This document shows, piece after piece, positions 179-38,470 of a stretch of DNA of 64,000 nt (positions are counted from its first letter, which is position 1; each line of letters opens with the position of its first letter). The stretch covers positions 36,022 through 100,021 of the forward strand of contig CAZOYW010000006.1 in the NCBI GenBank assembly GCA_964584165.1. The letters are read 5' to 3'. Both the position numbers and the translations under genes were made by a program. Below the pieces are notes generated by a model. The model was given only the letters and a program-made list of their open reading frames with translations, ran no database searches and was not told the origin of the DNA. The DNA comes from an uncultured bacterium (GTDB taxonomy: Bacteria; Auribacterota; Erginobacteria; Erginobacterales; CAZKCI01).

Positions 179-2734
179 TCAGCGCCGTCCCGGAGCGGAC
201 GCGGGCCCCCGGCGACGGAGGGCAGCCCCGACGGAGAGGAGGACGACCGCCGCCCAGGAGGCGAGCGCGACGGCGCCGCCAGAGACCACCGCCGGGGGAA
301 GGAAAGCGAGCTCGACCCGGTGTTTCCCCGCCGCGAGCCAGACCCCCCGCTGGCAGTAGTTGACCCGGTGGAGGTCGGCGGGACGGCCGTCCACCCGCGC
401 CGTCCAGCCGGGGTACCAGACATCGGTGAAGATGAGCATCGCGGGCGAGCTGAAATCGCACTCGGCCACGACGGCGTTGGCCCGGGAGTAATCGATTCGA
501 CTGACAACGGCCTTCTCCTGCAGCTCGCGAAAACGGGCCGCCTCCTCGGCCGAGGCGGTCAGGGCGGTCCAGGCGCCGCAGGAGCGGTAGCTCGCGACCG
601 CCTCTCCCCCCTCGCGCGCCTCGGCCGGAGGCTCGATCATGAAGACCCCCCGCCGGAGATCCCCCCCGACTAGCTCCCGCATCTGCTCATCGGCGCTCGC
701 CTCCACGATCCGGTCCTGGGCGTAGACGCGGGGGAGAGCCTCGGCGTTCTCGTGGAGGTAGAGCGGCGGGCGGGGCTCCAGGGCGAGCGATCGGCCGGAG
801 GCGAAGGGGCCGGAGGGCCGGATGTCCATCAGGTCCCCGACCGAGAAGTGGGAGAGGAAAGGGACGAAGACCGGGCGGGGGTTGGCCCAGTAGATCGGCC
901 AGTCCATCGGCTTCTGGTAGGCGGCCTCGATCGCCCGCTTGAACCTCCGCTCCAGGGGCTTCATGTCGTAGCCCATGAGCGCGGCGGAACCGTCGAGGCG
1001 GGCGAAGTTGTCGTAGAAGGGCTGGTCGGAGCCCCAGCGGGCGGCGGGGGCGAAGCGGCGGCGGGAGAGGGGGTCGAGGACAGTCCGCACCATCGGGTGG
1101 CGTTCCGGCCGGGAAGCCCTCATGTGCTCGGGGCGCGCGAAGCGGCGTTCGAAGGTGCAGAAGTAGAACGCGTTGAAGGCGAAAAAGGCGGACTCGGCCA
1201 GGACGAGCCCCAGGGCCGCGGCGGCGCGGCGCCGGCCGCGGAGGCCGCGCCCGATGAGGACGAGGAGGACCACGGCGAGGCCGTAGTGAGTCACCGGCCC
1301 CAGCCAGAGCCAGGCGCTCTCATGGCGCGCGGCCATCTCCCCCCAGCCCGGGAAAGCCCAGGGCCGGGGCGGCGCTATCACCATCCCGGGGTGCTTCAGG
1401 GTGAGGTCCTGCGGCCAGGCCAGGGCCAGGACCACGACGGTCGCGGAGACGGCGACGAAACCCCAGACCAGGCGGGCGGAGAGGCGCCAGGCGGGCGCCC
1501 GGAAGAGCACCTCCGTCCCCAGACCGGCGAGCCAGGCAGAAGCCGCGCATTGGAGGAGGCGATAGCGGATGGGGAAAGGGAACTGGGAGAGGAAGGGGAC
1601 GGCGCGGAAGATCCAGCGGTAGAAGGGGATATGCCTCCCCAGGACGCAGAGGAGGCTGAAGAGGAAGACGAAGAGGGCGAAGGCGGACCAGAAGCGGAGA
1701 CGGCGGAGGCCGGCGCGGCGGGCGAGCGGACAGAGTCCGACCAGGGCGAGGAACATGAGGAGGAGTCCTCCGGACAGGTTCGCCTCCCAGTAGCGCGCCT
1801 CGCGGACGACGTTGAACCCCCAGATGTGCCTCCCGTCCACCGCGCCGAAGAGGTCGGGGGAAAAGAGCGTGGCCAGGTAGAGGGGGGGGAGCGAACCGTC
1901 GCCCCCGGCGACGCTCGCGTAGGAGAGGTCGATGTGCTGTTCGGTGTAGGACTGCCCCTCCAGGGCGGAGAACCAGTAGACCGCGGAGAGGCAGACGCCG
2001 AGGATGACGGCCGCGGCGAGGAGGAGCGGCGCGCGGAGCGAGGCGGCGTATTCGCCGCGGAGGAGACGGCGGGCGGAGAGGGCCAGGGCGAGGAAGGCGG
2101 CGAGGACGAGGCTGTAGCCGAGGTGGGGGGGCTGGGCGGCGAGCGACATCAGCCCCAGCACGATCCCCCCCCGCGCCACGCCGCCCCAGGAGGGTCGGCG
2201 GTCGAGTTGAACCACCTGGAGAAGGAGGAAGGGGAGCCAGGCCTGCACCGCCACGATCGGGAACCAGACGTAGGAGTAGGAGAAGGCGGGGCTGAAGACG
2301 TAGATCCACCCCCCGGCGAGGGAGGAGAGGGGACGGAGGCGGAGCGCCCGGCGGAGGAAGAGGTACATGCCGGCGCCGGCCAGCAGGTAGTGCAGGAAGA
2401 GGGGGAGGAGGGAGAGGGTCCAGTAGGAGAGGTCGAGATCCCCCGGCCGGGAGAGAAGGTAGAACGGCCAGAGGGGGAAATACCAGGTGTCGGCGTAGTA
2501 GCGGGCGTAGAAGGGGATCGCCCCGCACCAGGTGTGGGGCTCCCAGAAGGGGATCTCGCCCTGCTGGAAATGGACGGCGAGGAAGTAGTGCCAGGGGAAC
2601 TCCGCCATCGCCTGGTCGTCCTGGAAGATCCCCTGCCGGCCGAGGAAGGCGGGGAGAAAGAGGAGCATAACTCCGAGAGACAAAATGAAGAGCGAGCGGG
2701 CGTCGGAACAAAAGCGCCAGAAAGGAGCATTCAT
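179..2734 (-). CDS. YfhO-family GT-C membrane glycosyltransferase (851 aa)
   Basis: Many TM helices; C-terminal signature DVWYPGWTARVDGRPADLHRVNYCQRGVWLAAGKHRVELAF typical of YfhO proteins. Confidence 0.8.
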   Translation of the reverse strand: MNAPFWRFCSDARSLFILSLGVMLLFLPAFLGRQGIFQDDQAMAEFPWHYFLAVHFQQGEIPFWEPHTWCGAIPFYARYYADTWYFPLWPFYLLSRPGDLDLSYWTLSLLPLFLHYLLAGAGMYLFLRRALRLRPLSSLAGGWIYVFSPAFSYSYVWFPIVAVQAWLPFLLLQVVQLDRRPSWGGVARGGIVLGLMSLAAQPPHLGYSLVLAAFLALALSARRLLRGEYAASLRAPLLLAAAVILGVCLSAVYWFSALEGQSYTEQHIDLSYASVAGGDGSLPPLYLATLFSPDLFGAVDGRHIWGFNVVREARYWEANLSGGLLLMFLALVGLCPLARRAGLRRLRFWSAFALFVFLFSLLCVLGRHIPFYRWIFRAVPFLSQFPFPIRYRLLQCAASAWLAGLGTEVLFRAPAWRLSARLVWGFVAVSATVVVLALAWPQDLTLKHPGMVIAPPRPWAFPGWGEMAARHESAWLWLGPVTHYGLAVVLLVLIGRGLRGRRRAAAALGLVLAESAFFAFNAFYFCTFERRFARPEHMRASRPERHPMVRTVLDPLSRRRFAPAARWGSDQPFYDNFARLDGSAALMGYDMKPLERRFKRAIEAAYQKPMDWPIYWANPRPVFVPFLSHFSVGDLMDIRPSGPFASGRSLALEPRPPLYLHENAEALPRVYAQDRIVEASADEQMRELVGGDLRRGVFMIEPPAEAREGGEAVASYRSCGAWTALTASAEEAARFRELQEKAVVSRIDYSRANAVVAECDFSSPAMLIFTDVWYPGWTARVDGRPADLHRVNYCQRGVWLAAGKHRVELAFLPPAVVSGGAVALASWAAVVLLSVGAALRRRGPASAPGRR

Positions 2735-4461: not shown

Positions 4462-4463
4462 CC

Positions 4464-5978
4464 ATGGGCCCCCCCCGCTTCGTTTCCCTGCTTCGCCGTC
4501 TCCCCCGCCGGTCCGTCTACTGGGCGCTGCTGCTAGCCGTGGCCGCCTACGTGGGTTTCGTGGTCTCGGACTACGATCGCTGCTGGATGTGCGTCGAGGT
4601 CTGGGAGCAGCACATCCCCAATGCGGTGAAAACGGGGCCACGGCTGGTAGCTGCCGATTTTTTGCGGGGATTCGAGAACTCCCCCTATGTCATTCTCACC
4701 GGCGAATTGCGCCTCTCCTTCGTCTCCAACCTCCTCCAGCTGCTCAACGTCAAGTTCCGTCTCTGGCTGTTCCAGCACCTGCCGATCCATCCCAGCCTCT
4801 CCTTAACCTGGGTGCTGGTGGCACTGGTCTCGCCGCTGCTCGCATACCAGCTAGCCAAGGAGCTCTCCGATGCATCGGGAGCCTGGACGACGGTGCTGCT
4901 CTATTGCCTTACCACCGGCTTCCTTTCCGGGCTGACCTACTTTATGAAGCCGAGCAAATACCTGACCAATGTCTTCGCCCTTCTCTGCTTTTATCTCGCC
5001 GCCCGCCTGGTCCGGGTCTCCACCGGCGCACCCTCGTGGGGGCGGCGGCAGTGGATTCTCCTCGCCGCGCTGCTCGGGAGTATTTTTCTGTCCTTCTTCA
5101 GCGACGAGGCCACCTGGTTCGTCTACCTGTGTCTCCCGATCATGTTTCCCGCCCTCTTCTCCCGGCGGGGGAAACGAGGCTTGATCTGGGGGCTCTATTT
5201 ATCGCTGGCGCTCTTCTTCGCCCTGACCGCCGTCTATCTGGCGCCGATCCTGGTCCGGCGTTTCGGGGGGGAGGAGATCAACTTCCTCTCGACGCTGCGA
5301 ACCTATCAGGGGCTGAGAAAGGCCAGCCCCTGGGAGACCTTCCGGTTCCGCTATCTCATCGTCAACACCGTCAACCTCTTGCGCAGCCAGTTTCTGACCG
5401 GGATCCGGGCCCTGGATTACCTGTGGTTCCCGCTCGCCGGCTACCTCGTCTGGTTGGCGGCGCTGATGCCCCCCCCTCGGCGGCGTCTGGCCGGACGGAT
5501 CGTCCTGACCATTGTCCTGTTCATCGTCTTTCAATCCTTTCTCCAGGCGCAGCATCCCGGGGTCCCCAGCCGGATCCTCAACTTCGCGTATTACTACGGA
5601 GTCCTCTTCTCCCTGCTCGCCGCCCTCCTCCTGGGGCTGCTCCTCTCCGGCTCCCCGCCCCGGCCCCTGCGGGCCGTCAACACCGCTGTTCTGGTGCTGT
5701 TGATGGTCGTCTTCGCCGTCAATTTCCTCCGCATCCGTCCGGGCTACGAGACCTGGAACGATCCGGAAGGCCTGGACCGACGCCGGGTCGACCGGGGCAT
5801 GGTGATAACCTGCTGGCGCTACCGCGAGCGGCTGGACGAGCTGGAGAAGGACCACCCCGAGATCGCCCGGTGGCTGGAGGGGGAGACCTGGCTGAAAACG
5901 GAGTTGAGATACATACCCCGGCGTCTCCCCGCTCCGGGGGCCGGGGAGACAGGCGCCCCCGGAGAAGGAACCAAGTGA
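4464..5978 (+). CDS. Polytopic integral membrane protein, putative GT-C-type partner of the downstream GtrB-like GT2 (504 aa)
   Basis: About 12 predicted TM helices; start ATG 3 nt after the upstream stop; its stop overlaps the next start (GTGA). Confidence 0.6.
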   Translation: MGPPRFVSLLRRLPRRSVYWALLLAVAAYVGFVVSDYDRCWMCVEVWEQHIPNAVKTGPRLVAADFLRGFENSPYVILTGELRLSFVSNLLQLLNVKFRLWLFQHLPIHPSLSLTWVLVALVSPLLAYQLAKELSDASGAWTTVLLYCLTTGFLSGLTYFMKPSKYLTNVFALLCFYLAARLVRVSTGAPSWGRRQWILLAALLGSIFLSFFSDEATWFVYLCLPIMFPALFSRRGKRGLIWGLYLSLALFFALTAVYLAPILVRRFGGEEINFLSTLRTYQGLRKASPWETFRFRYLIVNTVNLLRSQFLTGIRALDYLWFPLAGYLVWLAALMPPPRRRLAGRIVLTIVLFIVFQSFLQAQHPGVPSRILNFAYYYGVLFSLLAALLLGLLLSGSPPRPLRAVNTAVLVLLMVVFAVNFLRIRPGYETWNDPEGLDRRRVDRGMVITCWRYRERLDELEKDHPEIARWLEGETWLKTELRYIPRRLPAPGAGETGAPGEGTK

Positions 5979-7021
5979 AATCACGCGACCAGGGGGGGGG
6001 CGGAACCAGGGCAGCCGCCGGCCGCCCCCTTTTCTCGATCGTCATCCCCGTTTACAACGCGGCCGAGACGCTCCCGGAGTGCCTGGCGAGCATCTACGCC
6101 TCCACCTTCGCCGATTTCGAGGTGATCGTCGTCGATGACGCCTCGAGCGACGGATCGGCCGCCGTCGCCCGTTCCTCCCCAGCCGCCCTCGTGAGCCTCC
6201 CCGTTAACCAGGGCCCCTCGCTGGCCCGAAACGCCGGAGCCGAGCGGGCGCGGGGCCGCTTCCTGCTCTTCACCGATGCCGATTGCCTCTTCGAGAAGGA
6301 CCTCCTGGACCGGGCCCGCCGCCGGATCGAGGAGGAGGGGGCGGCCCTGTTCGGGGGCACCTACGACCCCCGTTCCGCCGAAGGAAACTTTTACGGCGAC
6401 TTCCAGGCCCTCTACGATTTCTACCACGAGACGAAAGATCCCTGCGCTAACTACCTGGCCGCGCACCTGCTGGTGATCGAAATGGACCTCTTCCGTCGCG
6501 TGGGGGGATTCCACCGGGGGGAGTTCGTCGGCCGGGACGCCGGCTGCGAGGACCTTGACCTGAGCTATCGGCTCAAGCGCCTGGGGTGCCGACTCTCCGT
6601 CTATCCGGAGCTTAGGGTGAAGCACTACTTCGGGTTCGGCCTCTTTTCCTCCCTGCGGAATGCCGCCAAAAAGAGCTACCTCTGGGCCCAGTTCCTCCTG
6701 GCGGAGAAGCTGCTGTTTTCCGACGCCGGCGTCGGATCCACCGAGCTGAAGGCGAACGCGGCCCTGGCGCTCCTCCTCCTCTTCGGCGCGGGGGCGGGCC
6801 TGGCCGGGCGGGCCGGGGGGTGGGCGGCGGCGGCCGGGCTGTTCGTTCTCATGCTCGCGATCAACCGGCGGTTCCTTTTGTTTGCCCTGAGGCAACGGGG
6901 GGCGCTTTTCGCCCTTCAGACGGCCCTCTACCTCCTAGTCCCCTACGCCCTGAGCGTGGGGGCGGGGGGATTCCTTCTCCTCTGCCAGGTCCCCTTCCGG
7001 CGGAGGCTTTGGAGAAAGTAG
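5975..7021 (+). CDS. GT2 glycosyltransferase with C-terminal TM helices (GtrB/polyprenyl-phosphate sugar synthase-like)
   Basis: LFSIVIPVYNAAETLPECLASIYASTFADFEVIVVDDASSDGS GT-A motif; DxD-like FTDADC; two C-terminal TM helices; GTG start overlapping the upstream TGA. The 869-aa ORF 4412-7021 is a read-through artefact. Confidence 0.8.
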   Translation: MKSRDQGGGGTRAAAGRPLFSIVIPVYNAAETLPECLASIYASTFADFEVIVVDDASSDGSAAVARSSPAALVSLPVNQGPSLARNAGAERARGRFLLFTDADCLFEKDLLDRARRRIEEEGAALFGGTYDPRSAEGNFYGDFQALYDFYHETKDPCANYLAAHLLVIEMDLFRRVGGFHRGEFVGRDAGCEDLDLSYRLKRLGCRLSVYPELRVKHYFGFGLFSSLRNAAKKSYLWAQFLLAEKLLFSDAGVGSTELKANAALALLLLFGAGAGLAGRAGGWAAAAGLFVLMLAINRRFLLFALRQRGALFALQTALYLLVPYALSVGAGGFLLLCQVPFRRRLWRK

Positions 7022-7028
7022 GCGGGCC

Positions 7029-8165
7029 ATGATGTACAGCCCCTTGCGCTTCCTGCCCCGGATCCTGCGGAAGGGGCGAGCGCCATTGCATCTCACCTAT
7101 TTCATCACCTCCCGCTGCAACTCCCGCTGCGGCTTCTGCTTCTACCGGAAAGAGGACCAAGCACCGGGGGTCGAGCTCGGCGCCGGCGAGGCGGAGCGGA
7201 TCGCCCGCGCCTATCCGGGGAACCTCCTCTGGCTCCTCCTCTCCGGCGGGGAGCCCTTCCTCCACCCGGAGATCTCCGCGATCTGCCGGGCCTTTTACCT
7301 CCACACCCGGCCTACCTTCATCGTCATCCCCACCAACTGCCTCCAGCCACGGGTGATCGAAGCAACGGTGGACCGGATCGCCCGGGAGTGTCCGCGCTCG
7401 CAGGTGGTGATCAAGGCCTCGCTCGACGGCTGGGGAGCAGACCATGACCGCCTCCGTGGCGTGGAAGGGAACTTCGAACTGTTTCGGGAGACCGTGGAAC
7501 GGGTCGGGGCGCTAAAGGTCGGGCGGCGGAACCTCTCCCTGGGCGTCAACACGGTCATCCTTCCCCAAAACCTAGATCTCCTCTCCGACCTGCGCCGGGA
7601 GGTCAGGAAATTGCCGCGCGTGGACTACCACAATTTCTCACTGGTAAGGGGCTCTGCGGCAACGGAGGAGTTGAAGGAGATCGATCCGGAGAGCTACCGG
7701 CGCCTGGGCGGGGATCTGGAAGCCGAGGCGCGGAGGGGAGAAGGCGGCAAGGGGAGCTTTTTCGGGGCCCAGCTGAAGGCCGCCCAGGATATCCGGCAGC
7801 GGGAGCTGGTGTACCGGGTGCTGGCGACGGGGAAGCGGCAGATCCCCTGTTACGCCGGCCGCCTGAACCTGGTCCTGAACGAAACGGGCGACATCTATCC
7901 CTGCGAGATGCTCCCCTGGAAGCTCGGCAACGCCAGGGAGGAAGGCTACGACCTCGGCAAAATCCTCTCCGGCCCCCGGACAGCCGAGTGCCTGAGAGCG
8001 ATCGCGGAGGGGAACGCGGTCTGCGACCGCTGCACCAACGAGTGCTACTTCATCACCAACATACTGTTCAACCCGCGCCAGGCCGCCGCCGCCCTGGGCC
8101 TCGCCGCCCGGATCCTCATCGGCGGAGCGGCGCGCGGAGCAAGGCCGCGGACTCGGCAGAGTTGA
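7029..8165 (+). CDS. Radical SAM/SPASM-domain enzyme, anSME-like (378 aa)
   Basis: CNSRCGFCFY CxxxCxxC cluster near the N-terminus; C-terminal Cys-rich SPASM region (GDIYPCEML...CDRCTNECYF). Confidence 0.85.
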   Translation: MMYSPLRFLPRILRKGRAPLHLTYFITSRCNSRCGFCFYRKEDQAPGVELGAGEAERIARAYPGNLLWLLLSGGEPFLHPEISAICRAFYLHTRPTFIVIPTNCLQPRVIEATVDRIARECPRSQVVIKASLDGWGADHDRLRGVEGNFELFRETVERVGALKVGRRNLSLGVNTVILPQNLDLLSDLRREVRKLPRVDYHNFSLVRGSAATEELKEIDPESYRRLGGDLEAEARRGEGGKGSFFGAQLKAAQDIRQRELVYRVLATGKRQIPCYAGRLNLVLNETGDIYPCEMLPWKLGNAREEGYDLGKILSGPRTAECLRAIAEGNAVCDRCTNECYFITNILFNPRQAAAALGLAARILIGGAARGARPRTRQS

Positions 8166-8230
8166 AATCGGGGGGCAGTAAGGCTATATTGTTGAAGTTC
8201 GCAGTGGCGGAGACGCGCCGGACAGCTCCC

Positions 8231-15224: not shown

Positions 15225-15248
15225 GGGTTCAGGGTTCAGGGTTCAGGG
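15225..15248. repeat. Tandem heptamer (GGGTTCA)x3 spanning the stop codon of the YfhO gene
   Basis: gggttcagggttcagggttcagggg read directly; it encodes the C-terminal ...LNPEP* on the - strand. Confidence 0.5.
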
Positions 15249-17682: not shown

Positions 17683-17714
17683 CTCGCTGAGCTGGGGCAC
17701 ACGCGATCGACCGG

Positions 17715-18767: not shown

Positions 18768-18777
18768 CGGGGATTAA

Positions 18778-18890: not shown

Positions 18891-19652
18891 TCATCCGAGA
18901 AGAAGATATTTCAGCCAGCTATACACGTATCGGCAAGACACCCGGCGGAGGCGGATCTTCGACTCCCCGAAGCGGCGGCTGAATTCGTGGGAGGGGATCT
19001 CGGCGATCCGGAAGCCCTTCCGCAGGGTCTTGATCGTCATCTCCTGCTCGATGGTGGTGATGTTCTCCTTGAGATCGAGGGCGCGAGCGCACTCCGCTGA
19101 GAGCGCCCGGAAGCCGTTCTGCGACTCGCTCAAGCGCACGCCGAAGCGGTAGTTGATCCCGAGCGTGATGATGTCGCTCCCGATCATCCGGAGAAACTTG
19201 TTCAAGTCGCCGTGAAGCTCGTCGGAGCCTCCCCGGGGGCGGGAGCCGACGACGTGGTCGGCCTCTCCCCGGAGGATGGGGAGGACCAGGCGGGGGATGT
19301 CGGCGGGACGGTGGGAGTAGTCGGCGTCGATAAAGACGATGACCTCGCCCGCGGCCTCCCGGATCGCGGTCCGCACGCCATCCCCCTTCCCCTTCCCCCC
19401 GTCCAGGACCACCCGGCAGCCCAAGCCGGAAGCGATCTCGCGGGTCCGGTCGGAGGAATGGCCGTCCACCACCAGGAGCTCGTCGGCGTAGGGGCGGGAG
19501 AAGCGGACGATCTCGCCGATCGACTTCTCCTCGTTCCGGGTCGGGATGACCACCGTGACCTTCTTCGTCCGGCGGCCGTACTCGGCGAGGATCTCCTCGT
19601 CGGAGCCGGCGGGGGCCCAGGGGTCGGCCGAATCGATCGGCGGGCGGTTCAT
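18891..19652 (-). CDS. GT2 polyprenyl-phosphate sugar synthase, DPM1/GtrB-like, soluble (253 aa)
   Basis: VTVVIPTRNEEKSIGEIV...VVDGHSSDRT...FIDADYSH; DPM1-type GT-A catalytic core. Confidence 0.85.
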   Translation of the reverse strand: MNRPPIDSADPWAPAGSDEEILAEYGRRTKKVTVVIPTRNEEKSIGEIVRFSRPYADELLVVDGHSSDRTREIASGLGCRVVLDGGKGKGDGVRTAIREAAGEVIVFIDADYSHRPADIPRLVLPILRGEADHVVGSRPRGGSDELHGDLNKFLRMIGSDIITLGINYRFGVRLSESQNGFRALSAECARALDLKENITTIEQEMTIKTLRKGFRIAEIPSHEFSRRFGESKIRLRRVSCRYVYSWLKYLLLG

Positions 19653-27898: not shown

Positions 27899-27947
27899 GG
27901 TTACTCCTCGGTCGCCGGTCGTCCCCCCCTCGCGGCGGAGTGAAGGT

Positions 27948-29451: not shown

Positions 29452-30438
29452 TCAGGGCCGCGGACGGTCAAGATTGCGAGTGCTGTCGACGATCACCCGC
29501 GGCCGACCGCGGCTCTGCCGGAAGACGCGTCCCAGATACACCCCGACCACTCCTATCGCCAGAAGCTCCAGGCCGGTCGAGAGGGCACCCCCCAGTCCCA
29601 GCCAGCAGACCGCTCCGGGCGGCGCGCCCGCCAGAACGGCGGCGGCGGCGACCAGGACCGCCAGGATGGCCGCGGCGGACAGGGCCAGACCCACGAGGAG
29701 GATCAGCATCAGGGGCATGATCGAATAGGAGGTCAGGCCGCTGACCAGCGTGCCGAGCGGCCCGTGCAGGGTCGAGAGGTCGCGCAGGAAATTGCGGAAG
29801 ATCGGGAAATGGCTCTCGCCGACGGCGCGCGGCTGGCGGTGGTAGGAAACCGGCACCTGCTTGAAGCCGATCCAGGGGATCATCCCGCGGGGATAGGGGT
29901 CGACCTCGGGCAGAGAGAGAAGGTGGGCAAGGACCCGGCGGGAGATCAGCTTGAAATCCCCCGCCTCCACGGCCAGATCGACGTCGGGGGTAAGCGAGTG
30001 AATCAGTCGGTAGGCGAACCGGGTCAGCCGGAGCCGGATGCGGCTCTCGGCCTGGCGGGAGGCCCGGACCGTATAGACGACCTCCGCCCCTTCCTTCCAG
30101 CGCGCGACCAGTTCGGGGATCAGCTCCGGGGGGTCCTGCAGGTCGGCGTCCATGGTGACCACCGCCTGACCGGCGGCGTATTCCATGCCCGCCAGGATGC
30201 ATTCCGCCTGCCCGAAACGGCGGGAGGTGGTGATGATCTTGATCCGGTTGTCCCGGTCGGCATAGGAATCCAGGAGCCGGCGGGATCCGTCGGAGGACGC
30301 GTCGTCGACAAAGATCAGCTCGAAGCCCTCGGCCATTCCGGCCAGGGCCTTCTCCAGGCGATCGATGAGGAGAGGCAGGAGTTCCTTCTCGTTGCGAAAG
30401 GTGAGGACGACGGAGAGAAGGGGGCGGGCAGCGGTCAT
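29452..30438 (-). CDS. GtrB/ArnC-like polyprenyl-phosphate glycosyltransferase (GT2 with two C-terminal TM helices)
   Basis: LSVVLTFRNEKELLPLLIDRL...FVDDASSDGS...TMDADLQDPPELIPELV; two C-terminal TM helices. Confidence 0.85.
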   Translation of the reverse strand: MTAARPLLSVVLTFRNEKELLPLLIDRLEKALAGMAEGFELIFVDDASSDGSRRLLDSYADRDNRIKIITTSRRFGQAECILAGMEYAAGQAVVTMDADLQDPPELIPELVARWKEGAEVVYTVRASRQAESRIRLRLTRFAYRLIHSLTPDVDLAVEAGDFKLISRRVLAHLLSLPEVDPYPRGMIPWIGFKQVPVSYHRQPRAVGESHFPIFRNFLRDLSTLHGPLGTLVSGLTSYSIMPLMLILLVGLALSAAAILAVLVAAAAVLAGAPPGAVCWLGLGGALSTGLELLAIGVVGVYLGRVFRQSRGRPRVIVDSTRNLDRPRP

Positions 30439-30467: not shown

Positions 30468-32951
30468 TTATCTTACGACAGGTCGCGACTCCGGCGCCAG
30501 ATCATTCGGCCGGCGGCGGGCGGCGGCGAGAGCGGAGAGGATCTCCCGCCGGTTGGAACCGGCCAAGGCCGCCCAACGGTCGACGGTCAGGCCCTCGGAA
30601 TCCCAAGCCGCGGGGTCCGCCCCCGCGGCCAGGAGAAGGGAGAGGATCTCGGCGCGGCCGTAACTCGCCGCGAACATCGCCGGGGTGCGGCCGCGGAGGT
30701 CGGGGACGTCCGGGCCGGCTCCCGCAGCCAGGAGAGCTCTCACGACTCCGATATCGCCGCTCTTCACGGCCAGGATCAGCGGCGGCTCGCCCGGGACCGC
30801 AAAACCCCTCTCGGCGACGTCCGCGCCGGAGGCGATGAGGGCGGCGACCCGTTCGGGACGTTTGAGGTAGACCGCCGAAGCGAGCTCACCCGGACCCGAG
30901 GCCAAGGCGACCGGGGAGGCGAGTCGGCGCAGATACCAGTCCTTGCCCAGATGGACGTCCCCCTCGCCGCGCTGGAGGATCCCTTCGAAGTCGTCGGCCC
31001 AGAGGAGGTACTCCGCCCGAGGCGGGATCGGCTGGAGACCCCGCCAGAAGGAGTTGAGCGGGATGACGGTCCGGGTCAGGCCGCGTCCGAAGAGCGGATA
31101 CTCGTAGGAGTGCCAGTTCAGGCAGGCCGCCACCACGGCGTCGGGGGGGACGAGCTCCTCGAACTTGCGGATCGCGCCCTCGAAGACCGGGCCGTCGCGG
31201 AGGAGCTGACCGAGACGGTCGCGGGCGAAGACGGAATCGGTCCGCGACGGGAGCTGGATCTCCTCCCGCCAGGCGGAGCTGAGGCAGGAGCGGAGCCAGA
31301 CCGCCTGGTCGAAGAGGATCGGCGAGCGCAGCTGGAAGAGGAGGCCGAGGACCGCCGAAACCGCCCCCAGACCGGCGGCGCCGGAGAGGGCGATCCATCC
31401 CAGGGGACGGGAGGGCGGGAAGAGAAAACCCGAGAGAGGGACGGCGAAGACCGTGGCGTAGAGGGTATAGTGCCCCCAGCTCGCCCCGCTGAAGGCGTGG
31501 ACGGCGACGCAGACGACGGCCGAAGCGGCCAGGACGCGGGAAGCGGGCGGGCGGCGGCGGGAGACAAGTCCGAGCAAGACCCCGGGCCAGACCAGGCCGA
31601 AGCCGAGGACCCCCCAGAGGGAGTAGTCGGGATGGCTGACCGGGGGCTTACCCCAGTGCCAGGGCTTGTCGTAGTACCAGTTGTCCGCGGGGTCGGACTC
31701 AAGCTCCAGACCGGCGGCGCGGATAGCGGCGGCGGGGAGGAAATGAAGCGCCTTCTGGGCGGAGACCACCGCCGGGACGGGAGGGAGCCCGTCCAGGGCC
31801 AGGAAGTCGAGGGCCATGGCGAAGAGATGCTTCGTCCCGTTGCGGAGGACCGCCGCGCCCCCCTTCCCCTCCACCAGGTTGATCTCCCGGAAATACCTGT
31901 CCCCCACGGGATGGCCGAAGATCCTCCAGTTTTCGGCGTAGCCGGCGGGGAGGGCGAAGAGGACGAGCGCCGCCGTCGTGGCCGCGGCGAGGCGGGCGGC
32001 GTCGCGGCAGCGCGCGCGGAGCGGGGTCGGGCGGGCGAAGAGGGCGAAGGCCGCGACCAGAAGGAGCGAGGGAGCGGCGAGGAGGACCGAGACCTTGGCC
32101 CCGGCCGCCAGGGCGAAAGCCGCCCCCGCCGTCCAGAGCCAGGCGGCGCGGGAGGTCTCGCGAAAGGCGAGAAGCGAATAGACGGCGGCGCCGAGGAGGG
32201 CGGCGAGGAAAAGGTCGCTGTTCGCGGTGTACGACTGGAGGACGACCTGGGGGAGAAGGGCGAAGACCAGCCCGGCGAAGAGGGCGGCGGGGCGGGCGCA
32301 GCCGAGACGGCGGGTGATCCCGTAGACCAGCGCCAGGCCGACGAGGTAGGAGGCTAACTGGGGAAGGCCGGTCAGGTTTTCGTTGCGGCCGAAGGCCAGG
32401 AAGACCCAGAGCAGGATCAGCTCGTACCCCTTCTGGGCCAGAACCTGGGTGTACATGTTGGCGTCGTAATAGCCGCAATGACCCTGCTGGATCCAGTAGG
32501 CGATCCGGGGGAGGCGCGTGACCATGTTGTCCCAGACGTGGGGGGCGGCGAAGAAGACGAGAGAGAGGGAAAGGAGGGCGGCGGCGAGGACGGCCGCGAG
32601 CATGGCACCGAGCAGGGCCCTCGGGAAGGGAGGGGTCTCCCGCCACCCCGACCACCGGCGCTGACCGAAGGCAGCTCTCCGGAACCACACCCGGCGGCGG
32701 AGGGGGGCGAAGGAGAGCGTCCCGGCCAGGAGCAGGAGGAGGGCCGCGGCCGAGGAGATCGCCCAGGCCCCAAGGCTCCCGAGAAGACCGGCGCGGGAGA
32801 GAAGATAGCCGAGCGACGGGAGAAGGGCGGCGGCGGGGAGGAAGAATGCGATGACCCGGGCGGGCAGCCCCCGGCCGCGGGCCGCCCGGGAGGCCAGGTG
32901 GCAGAAGAGGAGCACCGAGACCAGCGAAACCAATCCGAGCGTTGGCGGCAT
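30468..32951 (-). CDS. GT-C-like polytopic membrane glycosyltransferase (ArnT/PMT-like) fused to a C-terminal ankyrin-repeat domain (~827 aa)
   Basis: Multiple TM helices; C-terminal tandem ankyrin repeats (GEPPLILAVKSGDIGVVRALLAAGAGPDVPDLRGRTPAMFAASYGRAEILSLLLAAGADP). Internal ATG 32951 with an AAGGAGGG RBS was chosen over the ORF's first Met. Confidence 0.7.
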   Translation of the reverse strand: MPPTLGLVSLVSVLLFCHLASRAARGRGLPARVIAFFLPAAALLPSLGYLLSRAGLLGSLGAWAISSAAALLLLLAGTLSFAPLRRRVWFRRAAFGQRRWSGWRETPPFPRALLGAMLAAVLAAALLSLSLVFFAAPHVWDNMVTRLPRIAYWIQQGHCGYYDANMYTQVLAQKGYELILLWVFLAFGRNENLTGLPQLASYLVGLALVYGITRRLGCARPAALFAGLVFALLPQVVLQSYTANSDLFLAALLGAAVYSLLAFRETSRAAWLWTAGAAFALAAGAKVSVLLAAPSLLLVAAFALFARPTPLRARCRDAARLAAATTAALVLFALPAGYAENWRIFGHPVGDRYFREINLVEGKGGAAVLRNGTKHLFAMALDFLALDGLPPVPAVVSAQKALHFLPAAAIRAAGLELESDPADNWYYDKPWHWGKPPVSHPDYSLWGVLGFGLVWPGVLLGLVSRRRPPASRVLAASAVVCVAVHAFSGASWGHYTLYATVFAVPLSGFLFPPSRPLGWIALSGAAGLGAVSAVLGLLFQLRSPILFDQAVWLRSCLSSAWREEIQLPSRTDSVFARDRLGQLLRDGPVFEGAIRKFEELVPPDAVVAACLNWHSYEYPLFGRGLTRTVIPLNSFWRGLQPIPPRAEYLLWADDFEGILQRGEGDVHLGKDWYLRRLASPVALASGPGELASAVYLKRPERVAALIASGADVAERGFAVPGEPPLILAVKSGDIGVVRALLAAGAGPDVPDLRGRTPAMFAASYGRAEILSLLLAAGADPAAWDSEGLTVDRWAALAGSNRREILSALAAARRRPNDLAPESRPVVR

Positions 32952-33001: not shown

Positions 33002-35230
33002 TTATAGCCCTTTTCGCGGATCGCCGCAGCTGCCGGGAGCGGCCGTGAAGTGGCGGGGGCTCATCACGGCGAAGATCTCCCGCACCTCTCCCCCCCGACC
33101 CGGAAAAGCGATCCATCCCCGCCGGTACTCCCGCCGGAAGACGTCGCGGACCCAGAGCGTGTCGCCGAACTGCATGGCCCAGGGGCGGCTGTCGTCCCCC
33201 GGGCGGTCGGGCCAATCATCGCGGGGGACCTCTTCGCGCCCCCCCTCGCCCGCGAGCTCGACGCGGGCGGCGGCCGCGGCGGACGGACTCCCGCAGACGA
33301 CATAGATATCGCTGCAGAGAAGAGGGTCGAATCGGAAGGAGACCGCCTCGGCGCTCCCCGGACCGAGACGGGCGGAGGTTTCGAGCGACCCGTCGAAGGG
33401 TTCGGCGGGCGAGCCGCCCGCCGGCGCCAGGGCCCCGGAAGCGCGCGGCATCTCCACGAAGAGGTGGCCGGCGAAACCGCGCTCCTCCTGGAACCGGCTC
33501 AGCTCGCGGTAGGCGACCCGGGCGGTCGAGCCGGACCAGTTGAGAAAGGTGAGGGGGAACTGGCGGCGGGCGGCCGCGAAGTTCCCTAGTTTGCGGAAGG
33601 TGATGGAGCGGCCGTGAGCGAGGCCGGACTCGTCCCAGAGGTCGAAGACGACGGTCCGCCAGCGGGAGCGGTAGAACCCCTCCCTCTCCCGCTCGGCGAT
33701 CCAGCGCTTCCCCGACTCGCCGACGGCCGCGATGACGAGCAGGCTGTAGACGGCGAAGGCGGCGGCCGCCGCCGCGGGCAGCCGGCCCGGCGGCGGAAAA
33801 CGGCGGAACCGACGGCCGGCGAGAGCGGCGGCCGCCAGGCAAGCGACGGACGCGGCGGCGACGGCCGCCGCCGCGGGGGCGCCGGCGAACTTCGGATGGA
33901 AGAGAAGATAGGCCCCATCCCGGGCCAGAAGGGGGAGGCGACGGAGAAGCTCGGCGGGGGGGATGAAGGCGCGGGGGGCTTCGTTGGCGAGTACCCGCTC
34001 GCCCCACTGAAAGAAGGGGGCGGAGCCCTTGAAAATCTCGCTGCACTCGCCGAGGTAGCGGGAGAGCGGACCGAGCAAGTTGACTCCCATCCCGGCGATG
34101 AAGACCCCCATCCCGATCGGCATGGGGAGGCGGGAGATGGCGAGCGAGAGGCCGAGAACGGAGAAGGGGAGAAGCAGCATCGGGAAGCGCCCCCCCGCCC
34201 AGCACTGGTTCTCCCAGCCCCGATAGAGGGCCATCTCGAGGAACGAGCCGAGGAGCATGAACCCTCCCCCCAGCGCCACGCCGGGGGATCTCCGGATGAG
34301 CAGGACGGAGAGAAGCACGCCGGTGATGAAAACCGGGCTTTCCAGGAGGCGGGGGGAGAGATGGCGCACGACCTGGAGGATCTCACCCCAGCTCTGGCCG
34401 GTGGACCCGAAGGTGTAGGTCAGGTTCCAGGCCCCGACGTAGTAATGCTGGTAGAGGATGGCGGGGGCGACGCCCAGGGCGAAGCCGGCGATCACCATGA
34501 GAAGGCGAAATGGGGCCCCCCGGCCCTTTTCCCGAAGGGCGAGAATGATCCAGGAAGCGGCCGGTATGCCCAGCGAAACGATCGCCTGGAGGCGAAAGAA
34601 CGCGGCGAGTCCGGAGAAGAGGCCGAGGGCGAACCAAACCCCCGCGCCGCGGGACCCGCCGCGGTCGACCGCCGCCGCCTCGCGGACGAGGAGCGCGAGC
34701 GCGAGCATCAGCGGCCCGTCGGCCCAGCTGTGGTGGACGACCAGGAGCAGGAAGAAGTAGGAGGAGGCGACCGCGAGGGCCGTCCCGGCGAGGGCGGGGA
34801 GTGCGCCGGCCAGGCGGCGGGCGGTCCGGAAGAGAACGGCCAGGGCGAGGAGGGCGGCGAGGAGTCCGGGAAGGTTGAAGGCCGCCCGGTACAGGGGGGT
34901 TCCGGGGCCGAAGGCGGGCGCCGGCAAGCCGAGCGCGCCGCCGGCGGAGAGGGCGAGACGGAAAAGGGCGTAGGCGGGGAGAGCGAGGAGGGAGCGCCCG
35001 ATGGTGTGGTGGAGAGAGAGGTAGCCGGCCGGCGTCATGTAGTTCCCGATCCAGTCGGAGAACTCGGGGACCTCCCAGACCCGAAAGCCGCTCCCGCCGT
35101 CGATCGACTCGGCGATCATCCGGTAGGTGATGTCGGCGTAGCCGACGAAGGGGTTGGACCAGAGGAAGACGGCGGCGGCGAGCGCCGCCCAGGCGAGACC
35201 GGAAGCCATATGTCGCCTGAAACCAATCAT
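33002..35230 (-). CDS. GT-C-like polytopic membrane protein, paralog family A (C-terminal ...REIFAVMSPRH)
   Basis: N-terminal TM helices plus a large C-terminal domain. It shares a C-terminal motif with the genes at 45386-47623 and 53439-55586. Start ATG 35230 with an AGGAAAGAG RBS. Confidence 0.65.
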   Translation of the reverse strand: MIGFRRHMASGLAWAALAAAVFLWSNPFVGYADITYRMIAESIDGGSGFRVWEVPEFSDWIGNYMTPAGYLSLHHTIGRSLLALPAYALFRLALSAGGALGLPAPAFGPGTPLYRAAFNLPGLLAALLALAVLFRTARRLAGALPALAGTALAVASSYFFLLLVVHHSWADGPLMLALALLVREAAAVDRGGSRGAGVWFALGLFSGLAAFFRLQAIVSLGIPAASWIILALREKGRGAPFRLLMVIAGFALGVAPAILYQHYYVGAWNLTYTFGSTGQSWGEILQVVRHLSPRLLESPVFITGVLLSVLLIRRSPGVALGGGFMLLGSFLEMALYRGWENQCWAGGRFPMLLLPFSVLGLSLAISRLPMPIGMGVFIAGMGVNLLGPLSRYLGECSEIFKGSAPFFQWGERVLANEAPRAFIPPAELLRRLPLLARDGAYLLFHPKFAGAPAAAAVAAASVACLAAAALAGRRFRRFPPPGRLPAAAAAAFAVYSLLVIAAVGESGKRWIAEREREGFYRSRWRTVVFDLWDESGLAHGRSITFRKLGNFAAARRQFPLTFLNWSGSTARVAYRELSRFQEERGFAGHLFVEMPRASGALAPAGGSPAEPFDGSLETSARLGPGSAEAVSFRFDPLLCSDIYVVCGSPSAAAAARVELAGEGGREEVPRDDWPDRPGDDSRPWAMQFGDTLWVRDVFRREYRRGWIAFPGRGGEVREIFAVMSPRHFTAAPGSCGDPRKGL

Positions 35231-36034: not shown

Positions 36035-38470
36035 TCAAGACCGGCAGCGGCCGAGGAGGAGGAGCAGGGCCGCGGCCACAACTCCCCCCGCCGTCATCAG
36101 CCTCCCCCGGAACAGGGCCGCCGGGCGGAAGGCCATCTCCAGGCGGTGGCGCCCCGGCCCGCACCAGACCCCCCGCTGCAGAAAGTTCACCCGCCGGAGG
36201 GCTTCCGGGCGGCCGTCGACCCGGAGCGTCCAGTCGGGATGCCAGACATCGGTCAGCACGAGCATGGCGGGGCGCCAGACCTCCGCCTCGATCACGACGC
36301 GGTTGGGATCGGAGAAGTCGGCCTCGAGGATCCGCCCGCCCTCCCGGCGGGCGGCGGGATCGCCGGCCGGGGACGGGTAAGGCCGGGGGCGCGCTTCCCA
36401 GACCTCGGACGAGCAGACCCCCTCCGGCGCCAGGTCGGAGGAGAGAAGGGCATCCTTCTCCTTCGAAGCGTCCGCCGTTCGCCAGCGGTCCTGGAAATAG
36501 ACCCGGGGGAGGGCGGAGGGGGCTTCGAAGGCGAAATAGCCCCCGGCCCGCCCGAGCGGACGGAAGGAGGGATCTCCGAGCGGCCCGTCCGTCACCAGGT
36601 AGCGGACGGACATGTTCGCCCAGAACGGCTGCTTCCAGTCCCGGGGCCAGAGCTCGTTGGGCAAGCCGTCGGCGACGGCTTCCACCGCCTCCTTGTACCA
36701 GGGGAGAAGCGGCTTGGTATCGAAGCCGAGCGCGGAGAGGGATCCGTTGAGCCAGCCGGCCTGGTCCAGGTAGGAGCGGTGATAGCCGACGCGGTAAAGG
36801 CCGGCGGAGGGGGGAGAAAACTCCGCCGCCAGGCGGTAGAGAGGATGGTCGTGAGTCCCGTAATACCGGTCCGCCGAAAGGTCCTGGTTCCGGTAGTTGA
36901 GGATCCGGTTGTCGTAGAAGGCCGGACCGGCGAAGAGGAGGAGCTCGGCGAGCGCGGTTCCGAGCAGAAGGGGAAGCCGTCGCCGGGCGGGGAGCCGGGC
37001 GATCAGAGCGATCGCCGCCCCCGCCAACAGGAAGGAAAGGAGCGGACCACGGACGAACCAGGCGCCATCGCCGAGGGCGAGAAGGTGGCGAAAGGCCGGA
37101 GAAAAGCGCTGCCCCAGCGCCTGAACGGGGGCGAGCGAGGACGCTCCCAGGGCGAGGGAGGAGAAGGCGAGGAAGGCGGCCGTCCACCTCCCCGTCCAGG
37201 CCCGGCCGAGGAGGCGCGGCCGCCCCCAGAGAACGGAAACGGCCGTCCCGGCGAGGGCGCTCACCGCCCAGCACTCGATCACCCGCCAGCGGAGGGGATA
37301 GGGGAGCTCCCGGAAGACGGGGATGACGGAACGGATGATCCGATGGAGGGGAGTGTAGGATCCCAGGACCACCACCAGGCCGAAGAGGCCCTGGAGGGCG
37401 AAGACGCGGAGCCAGAAGCCGGGGGCGGTCTTCCGCGCCCTCCCCCAGCCGAGGCGGAGGCCGAGCAGGGCCAGGAAGGCGAGAGCCAGCCCCCCGGAGA
37501 GGGCGGCGTCGTTCATGCTGAACTGGATCTCGTAGGGCGGACCCCAGGCGTGGGCGCCGGTGACCGTCCCGAACCAGTCCGGAGCGAGGAGGGTGGCGAG
37601 GAGGGCGGGGTGGAGGCTGTAGGGGCGTCCGACCATCTCTTCGGCGTCGAAGAGGGGCGCCTCCCGGATCGACTCGATCCCGGAGAGGACCCGGGTCCAG
37701 AAGCCGCCGGCGAGGAGAAAGCCGACGAGGACGATCGCCGCCATCCCCCCCGCCAGGCGGAGCGCGCCGCGATACCTTCGGCAAAGGAGGAGGCCGGCCG
37801 TCGCGATCGCGACGGTCGTCCCGGAGACGGTCAGAACCTGGATGACGCCGGTCACCTCGCCGGCGGTGGAGTAGAGGGCGAAGACCGCCGCGCCGGCGGC
37901 GAGGTGAATCGTCCGGCCAAAGCGGGCGAAGAGCAAGACCCAGAGGAGAAGGGCGGGGAGGAGGTTGTAGACGAAGATGCAGGGAGGGAAGGTGACGTAG
38001 TAGACCATCATCGGGGAAAGGAGGTAGGCGGCGGCGAGGGCGATCCCGCCCGGGCGGTTCAGGCGGAGGCCGCAGACGCCCAGGAAGTAGGCCCAGAGCG
38101 CCGCCAGCCAGTAGTGGAGAGCGATCGGGAACTTCAGGATCCAGAAGAGGGCGGCTTTCTCCCGGGCGAGATCGGCGAACTGGAGAAAGGGCCGGAGGAG
38201 CGGGTAGCCGGCGAAGGAATAGAAGCGGGTGTAGAAGAGGCAGCCGCCGGCGTTGGTGTAGGGGTCCCACCAGGCGGGGGAGCCGGACTGGAAAGAGCGG
38301 GCGAGGAAAAGGGCCTGGGGGTAGTAGACGAAGGCGATGTCGTCGTAGAACATCGGCTTCCAGTCGAGGAGGAAGGGGAGGAGGAACCCTCCGACCGCGA
38401 GGAGGAGGGCGAGGGCGACCAAGAGCTCCCTCCGGAAATCGGAACCAAGGCGCTCCGACCGGGGTTTCAT
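36035..38470 (-). CDS. YfhO-family GT-C membrane glycosyltransferase
   Basis: C-terminal LVLTDVWHPDWTLRVDGRPEALRRVNFLQRGVWCGPGRHRLEMAF. The ATG at 38470 forms an ATGA overlap with the upstream stop; the ORF's first codon (GTG 38494) is the alternative. Confidence 0.8.
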   Translation of the reverse strand: MKPRSERLGSDFRRELLVALALLLAVGGFLLPFLLDWKPMFYDDIAFVYYPQALFLARSFQSGSPAWWDPYTNAGGCLFYTRFYSFAGYPLLRPFLQFADLAREKAALFWILKFPIALHYWLAALWAYFLGVCGLRLNRPGGIALAAAYLLSPMMVYYVTFPPCIFVYNLLPALLLWVLLFARFGRTIHLAAGAAVFALYSTAGEVTGVIQVLTVSGTTVAIATAGLLLCRRYRGALRLAGGMAAIVLVGFLLAGGFWTRVLSGIESIREAPLFDAEEMVGRPYSLHPALLATLLAPDWFGTVTGAHAWGPPYEIQFSMNDAALSGGLALAFLALLGLRLGWGRARKTAPGFWLRVFALQGLFGLVVVLGSYTPLHRIIRSVIPVFRELPYPLRWRVIECWAVSALAGTAVSVLWGRPRLLGRAWTGRWTAAFLAFSSLALGASSLAPVQALGQRFSPAFRHLLALGDGAWFVRGPLLSFLLAGAAIALIARLPARRRLPLLLGTALAELLLFAGPAFYDNRILNYRNQDLSADRYYGTHDHPLYRLAAEFSPPSAGLYRVGYHRSYLDQAGWLNGSLSALGFDTKPLLPWYKEAVEAVADGLPNELWPRDWKQPFWANMSVRYLVTDGPLGDPSFRPLGRAGGYFAFEAPSALPRVYFQDRWRTADASKEKDALLSSDLAPEGVCSSEVWEARPRPYPSPAGDPAARREGGRILEADFSDPNRVVIEAEVWRPAMLVLTDVWHPDWTLRVDGRPEALRRVNFLQRGVWCGPGRHRLEMAFRPAALFRGRLMTAGGVVAAALLLLLGRCRS

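Follow-up and report, generated by a model that had tools for sequence, protein, structure and literature searches.

Nearly all that is known about multi-component transmembrane glycosylation comes from Firmicutes and enterobacterial phages. The GtrA-GtrB-GtrX cassettes of Shigella and Salmonella phages are mobile three-gene units for O-antigen glucosylation, and the GtrB of PDB entry 5EKP comes from Synechocystis. In the ArnC-ArnT system, ArnC loads a sugar onto undecaprenyl phosphate, ArnD tailors it while it is lipid-linked, and ArnT transfers it in the periplasm, and in mycobacterial arabinan and mannan assembly EmbA/B/C, AftA-D and PimE use decaprenyl-phosphate-arabinose or polyprenyl-phosphate-mannose supplied by few synthases. 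CsbB-GtcA-YfhO is a three-component system for the glycosylation of lipoteichoic and wall teichoic acids with N-acetylglucosamine in Bacillus subtilis, Staphylococcus aureus and Listeria (PMC5836110, PMC8035078). The Pgf operon of Streptococcus mutans (PgfS, PgfM1, PgfE and PgfM2) carries out protein O-glycosylation, GtrB-PgtC2 is found in S. pyogenes, and the acceptors of YfhO-family enzymes can be Ser/Thr-rich proteins rather than teichoic acids (PMC12041528). Here we analyzed a 64-kb stretch of DNA from an uncultured bacterium (contig CAZOYW010000006.1, positions 36,022 to 100,021; hereafter, the window), in which an earlier note had described four YfhO-family glycosyltransferase genes of the GT-C class, matched by four GT2 genes resembling those of polyprenyl-phosphate sugar synthases. 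We conclude that this 4:4 match is a counting coincidence. The explanation that we favor, and that we hold as a whole to be reasonably probable, is that the window forms the central part of an envelope-glycan or glycoconjugate biosynthesis cluster of very large size (>64 kb), in which shared lipid-linked donors from about three synthases feed at least 11 outward-facing GT-Cs, instead of one donor being dedicated to each YfhO.

By analogy, the locus appears to follow the same logic as CsbB-GtcA-YfhO, Pgf, Gtr and ArnC-ArnT. We number the YfhO-like proteins Y1 to Y4 and the GT2 proteins G1 to G4 by position. As in CsbB-GtcA-YfhO, GT2 proteins resembling polyprenyl-phosphate-sugar synthases occur with putative outward-facing GT-Cs of YfhO architecture, which have C-terminal similarity to the Pfam family YfhO (PF09586). 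Unlike in that system, the alignment with PF09586 is confined to the last 35-70 residues, there are four paralogs and many other GT-Cs, the GtrB-type synthase (G3) adjoins a PMT_2 enzyme, no GtrA/GtcA gene lies nearby, and the organism has PVC-group MAGs (metagenome-assembled genomes) as its nearest genome matches. The acceptor is probably not a teichoic acid, since no teichoic-acid synthesis genes were recognized in the window. The Y3, G2 and Y2 genes resemble the Pgf operon in placing one GT-A beside two YfhO-type GT-Cs, but PgfS has transmembrane (TM) helices whereas G2 has none, and a radical S-adenosylmethionine (SAM)/SPASM gene stands in place of the epimerase gene. As in the Gtr cassettes, G3 aligns with GtrB including its two C-terminal TM helices and adjoins a GT-C; however, this partner is of the PMT_2 type with ankyrin repeats, GtrA is missing, and the genes are chromosomal, within a cluster exceeding 64 kb. 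The use of few lipid-linked monosaccharide donors by many GT-Cs would be shared with mycobacterial arabinan and mannan assembly, whose AftD and Emb proteins are top fold matches of Y4, but with ~12% identity there is no relation at the sequence level, the phylum is a different one, and neither a DprE-type epimerase nor arabinogalactan genes are present. Finally, ArnC (by sequence) and ArnT (by fold) are among the significant matches, whereas, unlike in ArnC-ArnT lipid A modification, there are no other arn genes, no model is matched at its equivalog cut-off, and any tailoring enzymes would be radical SAM proteins.

YfhO-like and GT2 proteins of the window

The four YfhO-like genes lie on the minus strand and encode Y1 (179..2734, 851 aa), Y2 (15229..17517, 762 aa), Y3 (19887..22373, 828 aa) and Y4 (36035..38470, 811 aa). 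The GT2 genes encode G1 (5975..7021, plus strand, 348 aa), G2 (18891..19652, 253 aa), G3 (29452..30438, 328 aa) and G4 (47620..48480, 286 aa), the last three on the minus strand. By exact sequence, the window falls on the 349,689-bp metagenome-assembled contig ENA ERZ15185029 NODE_2, from which we used independent gene calls covering the window and 10 kb on each side. All eight open reading frames (ORFs) are present at the positions given earlier, and the GC content at their third codon positions (GC3) is 0.84-0.93, as in real genes.

Judged by their sequences, Y1-Y4 are true paralogs of one subfamily: Y1 and Y4 are 32% identical from end to end (E 8e-73), Y3 and Y4 share 35-43%, and Y2 is the outlier with 26-31% identity to its paralogs, over the C-terminal part only in BLAST alignments. 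Their similarity to the Pfam YfhO model (835 positions, gathering threshold 28.5 bits) is marginal. Y2 scores 29.7 bits and is the sole paralog above the cut-off, Y1 and Y3 score 23.7 and 17.2 bits, and Y4 has no match; the alignments of Y1-Y3 span just the last 35-70 model residues (about positions 764-835). The NCBIfam models PgfM1 and PgfM2 align with the C-terminus of Y1 only, at 19-22 bits versus cut-offs of 1400-1500. On the other hand, most database relatives of Y1-Y4 carry a precomputed PF09586 match, and some are annotated as 'YfhO family protein'. An exhaustive HMMER search of clusters at 50% identity with a family profile built from the four paralogs and 13 relatives returned 108,338 clusters with full-length alignments at E <= 1e-3, and 36,294 at the stricter E <= 1e-30. 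When the ten top hits were compared with the Pfam YfhO model, they too matched through the C-terminal tail only, three of them having no match at all. As these top relatives behave alike, the tail-only match is a property of the Pfam model and not of Y1-Y4. We thus assign Y1-Y4 to a YfhO-like superfamily, as distant members with a marginal Pfam score and a supportive architecture and set of database relatives. Their nearest relatives in genome collections, at just 33-41% identity, are in a metagenome-assembled genome (MAG) labeled 'PVC group bacterium', in Candidatus Erginobacter occultus (Auribacterota) and in two other MAGs; given these low identities, the taxonomic placement is tentative.

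The superfamily also includes tandem fusions of two to four units, reaching 3051 aa (among P0034, P0040, P0045, P0196, P0201, P0216, P0217 and P0222), and other members are fused to Wzx/MOP-type flippase or PMT_2 domains; some of these fusions may stem from neighboring genes called as one.

An AlphaFold2 model of Y4, computed from an 80-sequence alignment, reached a predicted local distance difference test score (pLDDT) of 93.5 and a predicted TM-score (pTM) of 0.93. It contains about 13 TM helices, with helical TM bundles at residues 4-526, an alpha/beta plus beta-sandwich domain at 530-783, predicted to be periplasmic, and a final TM helix at 784-810. This architecture agrees with that of B. 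subtilis YfhO, which has 13 TM helices and a large outside domain between the last two (PMC5836110), and the hydropathy profiles of Y1-Y4 resemble one another. In a Foldseek search of the PDB with the model, every significant match was a GT-C, namely AftD (3e-6), ArnT (3.5e-5; target-normalized TM-score 0.55), STT3, EmbA/B/C, PglB, PMT and PimE. The first match outside the GT-C class, a sugar transporter, followed right after two PMT chains at E 8.7e-2, and there was none at E <= 0.08. The model thus places Y4 in the GT-C membrane fold. A sequence search of the PDB with Y4 returned nothing even at E 10, and no solved YfhO structure appeared in the sequence and Foldseek searches of the PDB. Hence, of the earlier assertion of four YfhO-family GT-C genes, the ORFs, their paralogy and the GT-C fold stand, while the Pfam YfhO match proper is limited to the C-terminus and exceeds the cut-off in one protein of the four.

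A conserved acidic residue, D44 in Y4 numbering, comes immediately behind TM1; 79 of the 80 aligned sequences, Y1, Y2 and Y4 among them, have Asp here, and Y3 has Glu. Since the N-terminus is positively charged, which points to a positive-inside TM1, loop 1 with D44 is predicted to lie outside the cytoplasm. Y1, which has orthologs at 50-52% identity in the related loci L007 and L008, is canonical at 21 of the 22 tabulated conserved columns (20 of the 21 that are family-conserved), the single exception being P90F. Y2, in turn, stands alone in deviating at 11 of the 21 family-conserved positions (D43, the remaining column, varies), and Y3 is the sole sequence of the 80 with D44E and W68F. Together with the restriction of the Y2 BLAST alignments to the C-terminal part, these deviations could mean that Y2, and perhaps Y3, is catalytically dead or has been repurposed as a scaffold, an acceptor-binding subunit or a flippase-like protein, leaving fewer than four active YfhO-type transferases. 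We regard this as rather improbable, since Y2 retains D44, W68, P70, R560, W747 and G773, other GT-Cs tolerate a Glu as catalytic residue, with DE, DXE and EXD variants on record (PMC5836110), and both ORFs are intact with GC3 values of 0.84-0.90. Some of the Y2 deviations may moreover be alignment errors at 20% identity. With the acidic loop residue kept in all four proteins, none of them is an obvious pseudo-enzyme by the refutation criterion of the earlier note.

All four GT2 proteins match PF00535, and three of them look like polyprenyl-phosphate sugar synthases, as had been proposed for the whole set. On sequence criteria, G3 is a bona fide GtrB-type polyprenyl-phosphate hexose synthase and the only GT2 that combines a full-length alignment with a TM hairpin: it aligns with GtrB structures (PDB 5EKP/5EKE) over its full length (E 1e-51 to 5EKP over residues 8-319), and its two C-terminal TM helices are predicted near residues 245 and 280. 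It also matches ArnC (1e-33) and PgfS (190 bits, below the equivalog cut-off of 500). G2 is a DPM1/AglJ-like protein with no TM helix, matching AglJ with 147 bits over residues 31-237 and the dolichyl-phosphate (Dol-P)-mannose synthase (DPMS) structure 5MLZ with E 6e-15 over residues 29-248, followed by GpgS, which is not a carrier-lipid enzyme (66 bits), a Dol-P-hexose transferase model (62 bits) and PpgS (58 bits). G4, likewise DPM1-like and with no TM helix, scores 80 bits with a haloarchaeal Dol-P-hexose transferase model and 73 bits with AglJ, and it aligns with ArnC and DPMS over ~210 aa (E ~1e-9 to 1e-10). The mechanical ORF of G4 reaches 48738. We consider the start at 48480 to be correct, because GC3 is 0.93 downstream of this position versus 0.66 with no periodicity upstream, and because a GGGGAGG Shine-Dalgarno sequence precedes the ATG there.

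The earlier description does not extend to G1, which from its profile matches appears to be a generic membrane-anchored GT2 with C-terminal TM helices and not clearly a carrier-lipid sugar synthase. Its best scores are to MftF (86 bits), EpsD (84), TIGR04283 (74) and TuaG (62), versus 37, 31 and 16 bits to the carrier-lipid synthases PpgS, ArnC and AglJ, which it matches in the nucleotide-binding half only, and its best PDB matches are GalT1, chondroitin synthase, PglI and the minimal cellulose-synthase-like 6YV7.

Gene order, further GT-C candidates and shared donors

The synthase-like genes are mostly coupled to other GT-C candidates than the YfhO-like ones. G3 lies 29 bp downstream of a gene for a PMT_2-type GT-C with C-terminal ankyrin repeats (30468..32951, minus strand, 827 aa; PMT_2 E 6e-9, PMT E 2e-6, Ank E 2e-11), and the stop codon of G4 overlaps the start of the gene at 45386..47620 by 1 nt, an arrangement of translational coupling. 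The start of Y4 is overlapped by the stop of a GT-C-like gene (38467..40566) and not by that of any GT2 gene, Y1 is solitary at the cluster edge, and no GT2 gene adjoins Y1 or Y4. Only G2 is near YfhO-like genes, between two of them, separated by a 234-bp gap from Y3 and by one gene from Y2. Accordingly, the adjacency of a GT-A synthase and a GT-C is a feature of the locus as a whole and not of YfhO pairs, and the linkage between YfhO-like and GT2 genes survives only here, as one synthase with two YfhO-likes.

Besides Y1-Y4, the window probably contains at least seven further GT-C genes, all on the minus strand. In addition to the PMT_2-ankyrin protein, there are three PMT_2/LA_3751-like polytopic membrane proteins, at 33002..35209 (735 aa; PMT_2 E 2e-3), 45386..47620 (744 aa; E 1e-6 to the LA_3751/LA_3752 putative glycosyltransferase family) and 53439..55586 (715 aa). 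The second is paralogous to the first (E 5e-21) and 42% identical to the third, and an invariant Asp follows TM1 in all three; a PDB sequence search with their profile returned nothing even at E 10. A polytopic protein of 743 aa with a C-terminal discoidin-like domain (51211..53442; weak F5/8 type C match) is probably a PMT_2-like GT-C as well, as suggested by a 38%-identical homolog in locus L016 that matches PMT_2 (E 5e-4) and has a discoidin domain. The remaining two, at 38467..40566 (699 aa) and 41366..43504 (712 aa), are 30% identical and form a rare family of GT-C-like proteins with a carbohydrate-binding module (CBM)-like domain, for which a word-indexed search of 5.8 billion sequences returned only four homologs, at 37-38% identity and none with a Pfam match. 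After TM1, a P-E-x-L-R-L motif is invariant across the six aligned sequences. In the AlphaFold2 model of the 41366..43504 protein (pLDDT 70), the membrane part resembles STT3, PglB and PimE by Foldseek (E ~1e-3), and the C-terminus resembles CBM4/CBM61-type jelly rolls.

Comparison with related loci gives the same picture. In three related genomes (L007-L009), Y1 orthologs (50-52% identity) stand beside Y4-like genes (39-41%), and no GT2 homolog was found within 10 kb of these pairs even at E = 1. Conversely, a metagenome scan with G2 recovered 80 loci with homologs at 51-93% identity, and YfhO-like ORFs, detected with the family hidden Markov model (HMM), were present in two of them, one being another strain of the same organism.

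These results bear directly on the idea of four dedicated YfhO-GT2 pairs, each making and transferring its own lipid-linked sugar. In its favor, the counts are equal (four and four), G2 lies between Y3 and Y2 and co-varies with both between strains (see below), and CsbB-YfhO operon pairing is the rule in Firmicutes (PMC5836110). We nevertheless find it very improbable, because G1 is not synthase-like, G3 and G4 are physically coupled to PMT_2-like GT-Cs, GT2 genes are missing from the 10 kb around the Y1 and Y4 orthologs of L007-L009, and the G2 homologs rarely have YfhO-like neighbors. Since at least seven additional GT-C-like genes are present and would compete for donors, the 4-versus-4 correspondence is not a property of the locus. 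Furthermore, the four GT2 proteins fall into three deeply separated subfamilies while the YfhO-like proteins form one, which gives no sign of the two sets having co-diverged. The earlier conclusion that four pairs imply four lipid-linked donors is thus contradicted by gene order, by the extra GT-Cs and by the comparative context. The general mechanism put forward with it, in which a GT2 makes a polyprenyl-phosphate sugar and an outward-facing GT-C transfers it, fits G3, the two DPM1-like GT2s and the four GT-C-fold proteins.

In the mechanism that we propose, three cytoplasm-facing GT2s, one GtrB-type with a TM hairpin and two TM-less and DPM1/AglJ-like, would load sugars from nucleotide donors onto polyprenyl phosphate, and a flippase would flip the lipid-linked sugars across the membrane. 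At least 11 outward-facing GT-Cs, comprising four YfhO-like, about five PMT_2-like and two rare GT-C+CBM-like proteins, would then use these donors on acceptors that may be periplasmic or outer-surface molecules. In the Y3/G2/radical SAM-SPASM/Y2 module, one synthase would serve two YfhO-likes. This mechanism builds on observed homology, fold, conserved residues, gene order and conserved neighbors, from which the carrier lipid, the sugars, the flipping, the acceptors and any part of the nine radical SAM enzymes described below are inferred. There is precedent for one GT-A serving several GT-Cs, in PgfS with PgfM1 and PgfM2 (PMC12041528) and in GttA with GtlB and GttB (PMC8035078).

Several observations weigh against this proposal, including the deviations of Y2 and Y3 described above. 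None of the four GT2 proteins reaches an NCBIfam equivalog cut-off, which bears on their sugar and acceptor-lipid specificity, and the two DPM1-like ones, having no TM helix, could act on a non-lipid acceptor. The GT-C status of the 33002/45386/53439 trio is based on weak PMT_2 and LA_3751 matches, and that of the 38467/41366 pair on a model with a pLDDT of 70 and fold matches at E ~1e-3. Among the called genes of the window and the 10 kb on either side, where no intergenic gap exceeds 300 bp, there is no GtrA (PF04138) gene, and no Wzx flippase was found in this region. In Bacillus, gtcA is encoded elsewhere in the genome, and a GtrA-type gene could likewise lie elsewhere here.

The YfhO-likes might instead be ligases, polymerases or oligosaccharyltransferases that act on oligo- or polysaccharides linked to polyprenyl diphosphate, with the GT2s serving only the PMT_2-type GT-Cs. 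The fusion of the family members P0196 and P0201 to Wzx/MOP-type oligosaccharide flippases would fit such a role, as would the oligosaccharyltransferases STT3 and PglB among the fold neighbors, the Y1/Y4 orthologs with no nearby GT2 genes, and the G2-type synthase of L016, which travels with PMT_2-type GT-Cs. However, all experimentally studied YfhO-family enzymes need a GtrB/CsbB-type synthase (PMC8035078, PMC12041528), and ArnT, AftD and Emb, whose donors are monophosphates, match the fold equally well or better. In addition, the Y3-G2-radical SAM-Y2 module co-varies as a unit, and no initiating phosphoglycosyltransferase, Wzx or Wzy was recognized in the window. We therefore consider this alternative unlikely, though less so than dedicated pairs.

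Radical SAM genes and a strain-variable module

The window contains nine radical SAM genes, five of them with a B12-binding domain and four others, two of which have a recognized SPASM domain. Every GT2 gene has a radical SAM gene at most two genes away, and for three of them it is directly adjoining. A radical SAM/SPASM gene (7029..8165, plus strand) begins 7 bp downstream of G1, another (17715..18767, minus) is the conserved neighbor of G2, a B12-binding radical SAM gene (27948..29447, minus) lies 4 bp downstream of G3, and a radical SAM gene (50110..51153, minus) is located two genes upstream of G4. A further B12-binding radical SAM gene is found downstream of Y2 (13707..15188, minus), with a 67%-identical ortholog near the YfhO-like pair in L007, and the minus-strand block 55538..63620 holds three more (55538-57052, 57129-58517 and 62202-63620) and another radical SAM gene (59941-60996).

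This association is conserved beyond the organism. Homologs of the radical SAM-SPASM protein (17715..18767) are encoded in 39 of the 80 loci with G2 homologs, and B12-binding radical SAM proteins in 25, across diverse environments; for the 24 of these loci that extend 3 kb or more to either side, the numbers are 13 and 8. In L016, which belongs to a different organism, genes for two PMT_2-type GT-Cs, for DegT aminotransferases and for an epimerase surround the cassette. A NCBIfam scan of eight of the radical SAM proteins gave mixed sub-threshold matches, none reaching a curated family cut-off.

Comparison with another strain (L015, JAEAMG010000066.1) showed 99.2-100% identity over the surrounding ~17 kb, and a drop to 62-96% DNA identity in a ~4-kb patch at about 17000-21000. 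The patch spans the N-terminus of Y2, the radical SAM-SPASM gene, G2, the 234 intergenic bp between G2 and Y3, and the periplasmic domain at the C-terminal end of Y3. As these genes vary together between the two strains, the Y3/G2/radical SAM-SPASM/Y2 module behaves as a unit in this comparison, and the patch has the appearance of a surface-glycan module whose allele was exchanged. In the comparison with L095, the identity was uniform at 96-97%, and there was no localized patch around Y4.

The neighbors conserved over the 80 loci are thus radical SAM proteins and not GT-Cs, and this raises another alternative for G2, possibly also for G4, in which the GT2 and its radical SAM-SPASM and B12-binding partners glycosylate a peptide, a small molecule or a membrane lipid, in the manner of MftF/MftC or HpnI/HpnJ. 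Radical SAM-SPASM enzymes typically mature peptides or cofactors, there are weak matches to mycofactocin, HpnH and HpnJ models, and the lack of a TM helix in G2 would agree with such a function. On the other hand, the best profiles of G2 are those of dolichyl- and prenyl-phosphate hexose synthases, matched over the whole catalytic domain, the L016 cassette lies among PMT_2 GT-Cs and nucleotide-sugar enzymes, no radical SAM protein attains a curated family cut-off, and no precursor-peptide gene was noticed. On this evidence we judge the alternative to be quite unlikely.

If, as we prefer, the synthases act on a carrier lipid, the GT2-radical SAM cassette may make a polyprenyl-phosphate sugar that is tailored by the radical SAM enzymes while lipid-linked, by C-methylation, epimerization or deoxygenation, and is then transferred by periplasmic GT-Cs, YfhO-like in the window and PMT_2-like in other loci; the Y3-G2-radical SAM-Y2 patch would then be a cassette for surface-glycan variation. 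We offer this extension, which would concern all nine radical SAM enzymes, as a doubtful one, and we know of no precedent for radical SAM tailoring of lipid-linked sugars.

We also considered the radical SAM-SPASM proteins as anaerobic sulfatase maturases (anSMEs) for the sulfatase-like neighbors described in the next section, and rejected this assignment. The C/S-x-P-x-R formylglycine motif is absent from both proteins that could be cleanly checked among the four sulfatase-like ones (10188-13643 and 23963-25381), and no anSME model is among the best 25 of the 38-48 NCBIfam matches of each of the four radical SAM-SPASM-type proteins.

Other genes of the cluster

The window has a GC content of ~69% and is nearly all coding, with nearly every gene from ~10.2 kb to the right edge on the minus strand. 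A separate plus-strand operon (3031-10144), divergent from Y1, comprises a flavin amine-oxidase-like gene, a gene for a protein with eight TM helices, G1, its radical SAM-SPASM gene and an alkaline-phosphatase-superfamily gene. In related MAGs (L007 18856-19989; L009 17641-19875), homologs of its 8-TM protein, oxidase and radical SAM protein are encoded no more than 10 kb from YfhO-like pairs. Past the right edge, three DegT aminotransferase genes and an epimerase/dehydratase gene show that the cluster runs on into nucleotide-sugar genes.

Upstream of G4 and its GT-C partner, across a 276-bp non-coding gap (48481-48756), lies an RGP/GT75-like gene (48757-49920; PF03214 E 1.6e-15). Plant RGPs are UDP-arabinose mutases, and by analogy it is conceivable that this gene provides a furanose donor. 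A split transketolase (27068-27898 and 26129-27067) adjoins a gene for an RmlC-like dTDP-sugar epimerase (25389-25910) in the region 25389-28213, placed between a sulfatase-like gene and the B12-binding radical SAM and GtrB-type genes; this combination may indicate unusual sugar carbon-skeleton chemistry. Other genes in the window include a GT9 gene (60993-62147, minus strand) in the 55538..63620 block, two methyltransferase genes and, beyond the GT-C candidates, genes for three more polytopic membrane proteins, one of which (43548..45389, minus, 613 aa, ~10 TM helices) is syntenic with YfhO-likes in the related loci L009 and L010. A Pfam search at E <= 5 with ten unassigned proteins of the window returned nothing new for the nine unassigned membrane proteins.

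Four genes encode proteins of the alkaline phosphatase superfamily ('sulfatases'; 8231-10144, 10188-13643, 23963-25381 and 58514-59944), and the 10188-13643 protein additionally has N-terminal TM helices and TPR repeats. Because the formylglycine motif is missing from the proteins at 10188-13643 and 23963-25381, these two may be phospho-transferases or hydrolases instead of sulfatases. The mechanical ORF 57129-59684 suggested a single B12-binding radical SAM protein of 851 aa, which the gene calls rule out; it consists of two overlapping genes in different frames, the B12-binding radical SAM gene 57129-58517 and the alkaline-phosphatase-superfamily gene 58514-59944. ARAGORN called a tRNA-Ser(CGA) at 39217-39303 (plus strand), antisense within the coding region of 38467-40566. 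An Rfam scan of the window at gathering thresholds found nothing, including at this position, and the tRNA call is probably a false positive.

The case is a warning against inferring enzyme pairings from gene counts, and it brings to light a huge YfhO-like superfamily, of the order of 10^5 clusters at 50% identity, that Pfam sees only via its C-terminal tail. The same logic as in the described multi-component systems, greatly scaled up, would operate in this uncultured PVC-related bacterium, with about three synthases, at least 11 GT-C-type transferases of at least three families and nine radical SAM enzymes. What is unusual about the locus is the scale of the cluster and the conserved association of GT2 and radical SAM genes, and in particular the link between DPM1-like GT2s and radical SAM proteins is a lead to what may be new sugar chemistry.

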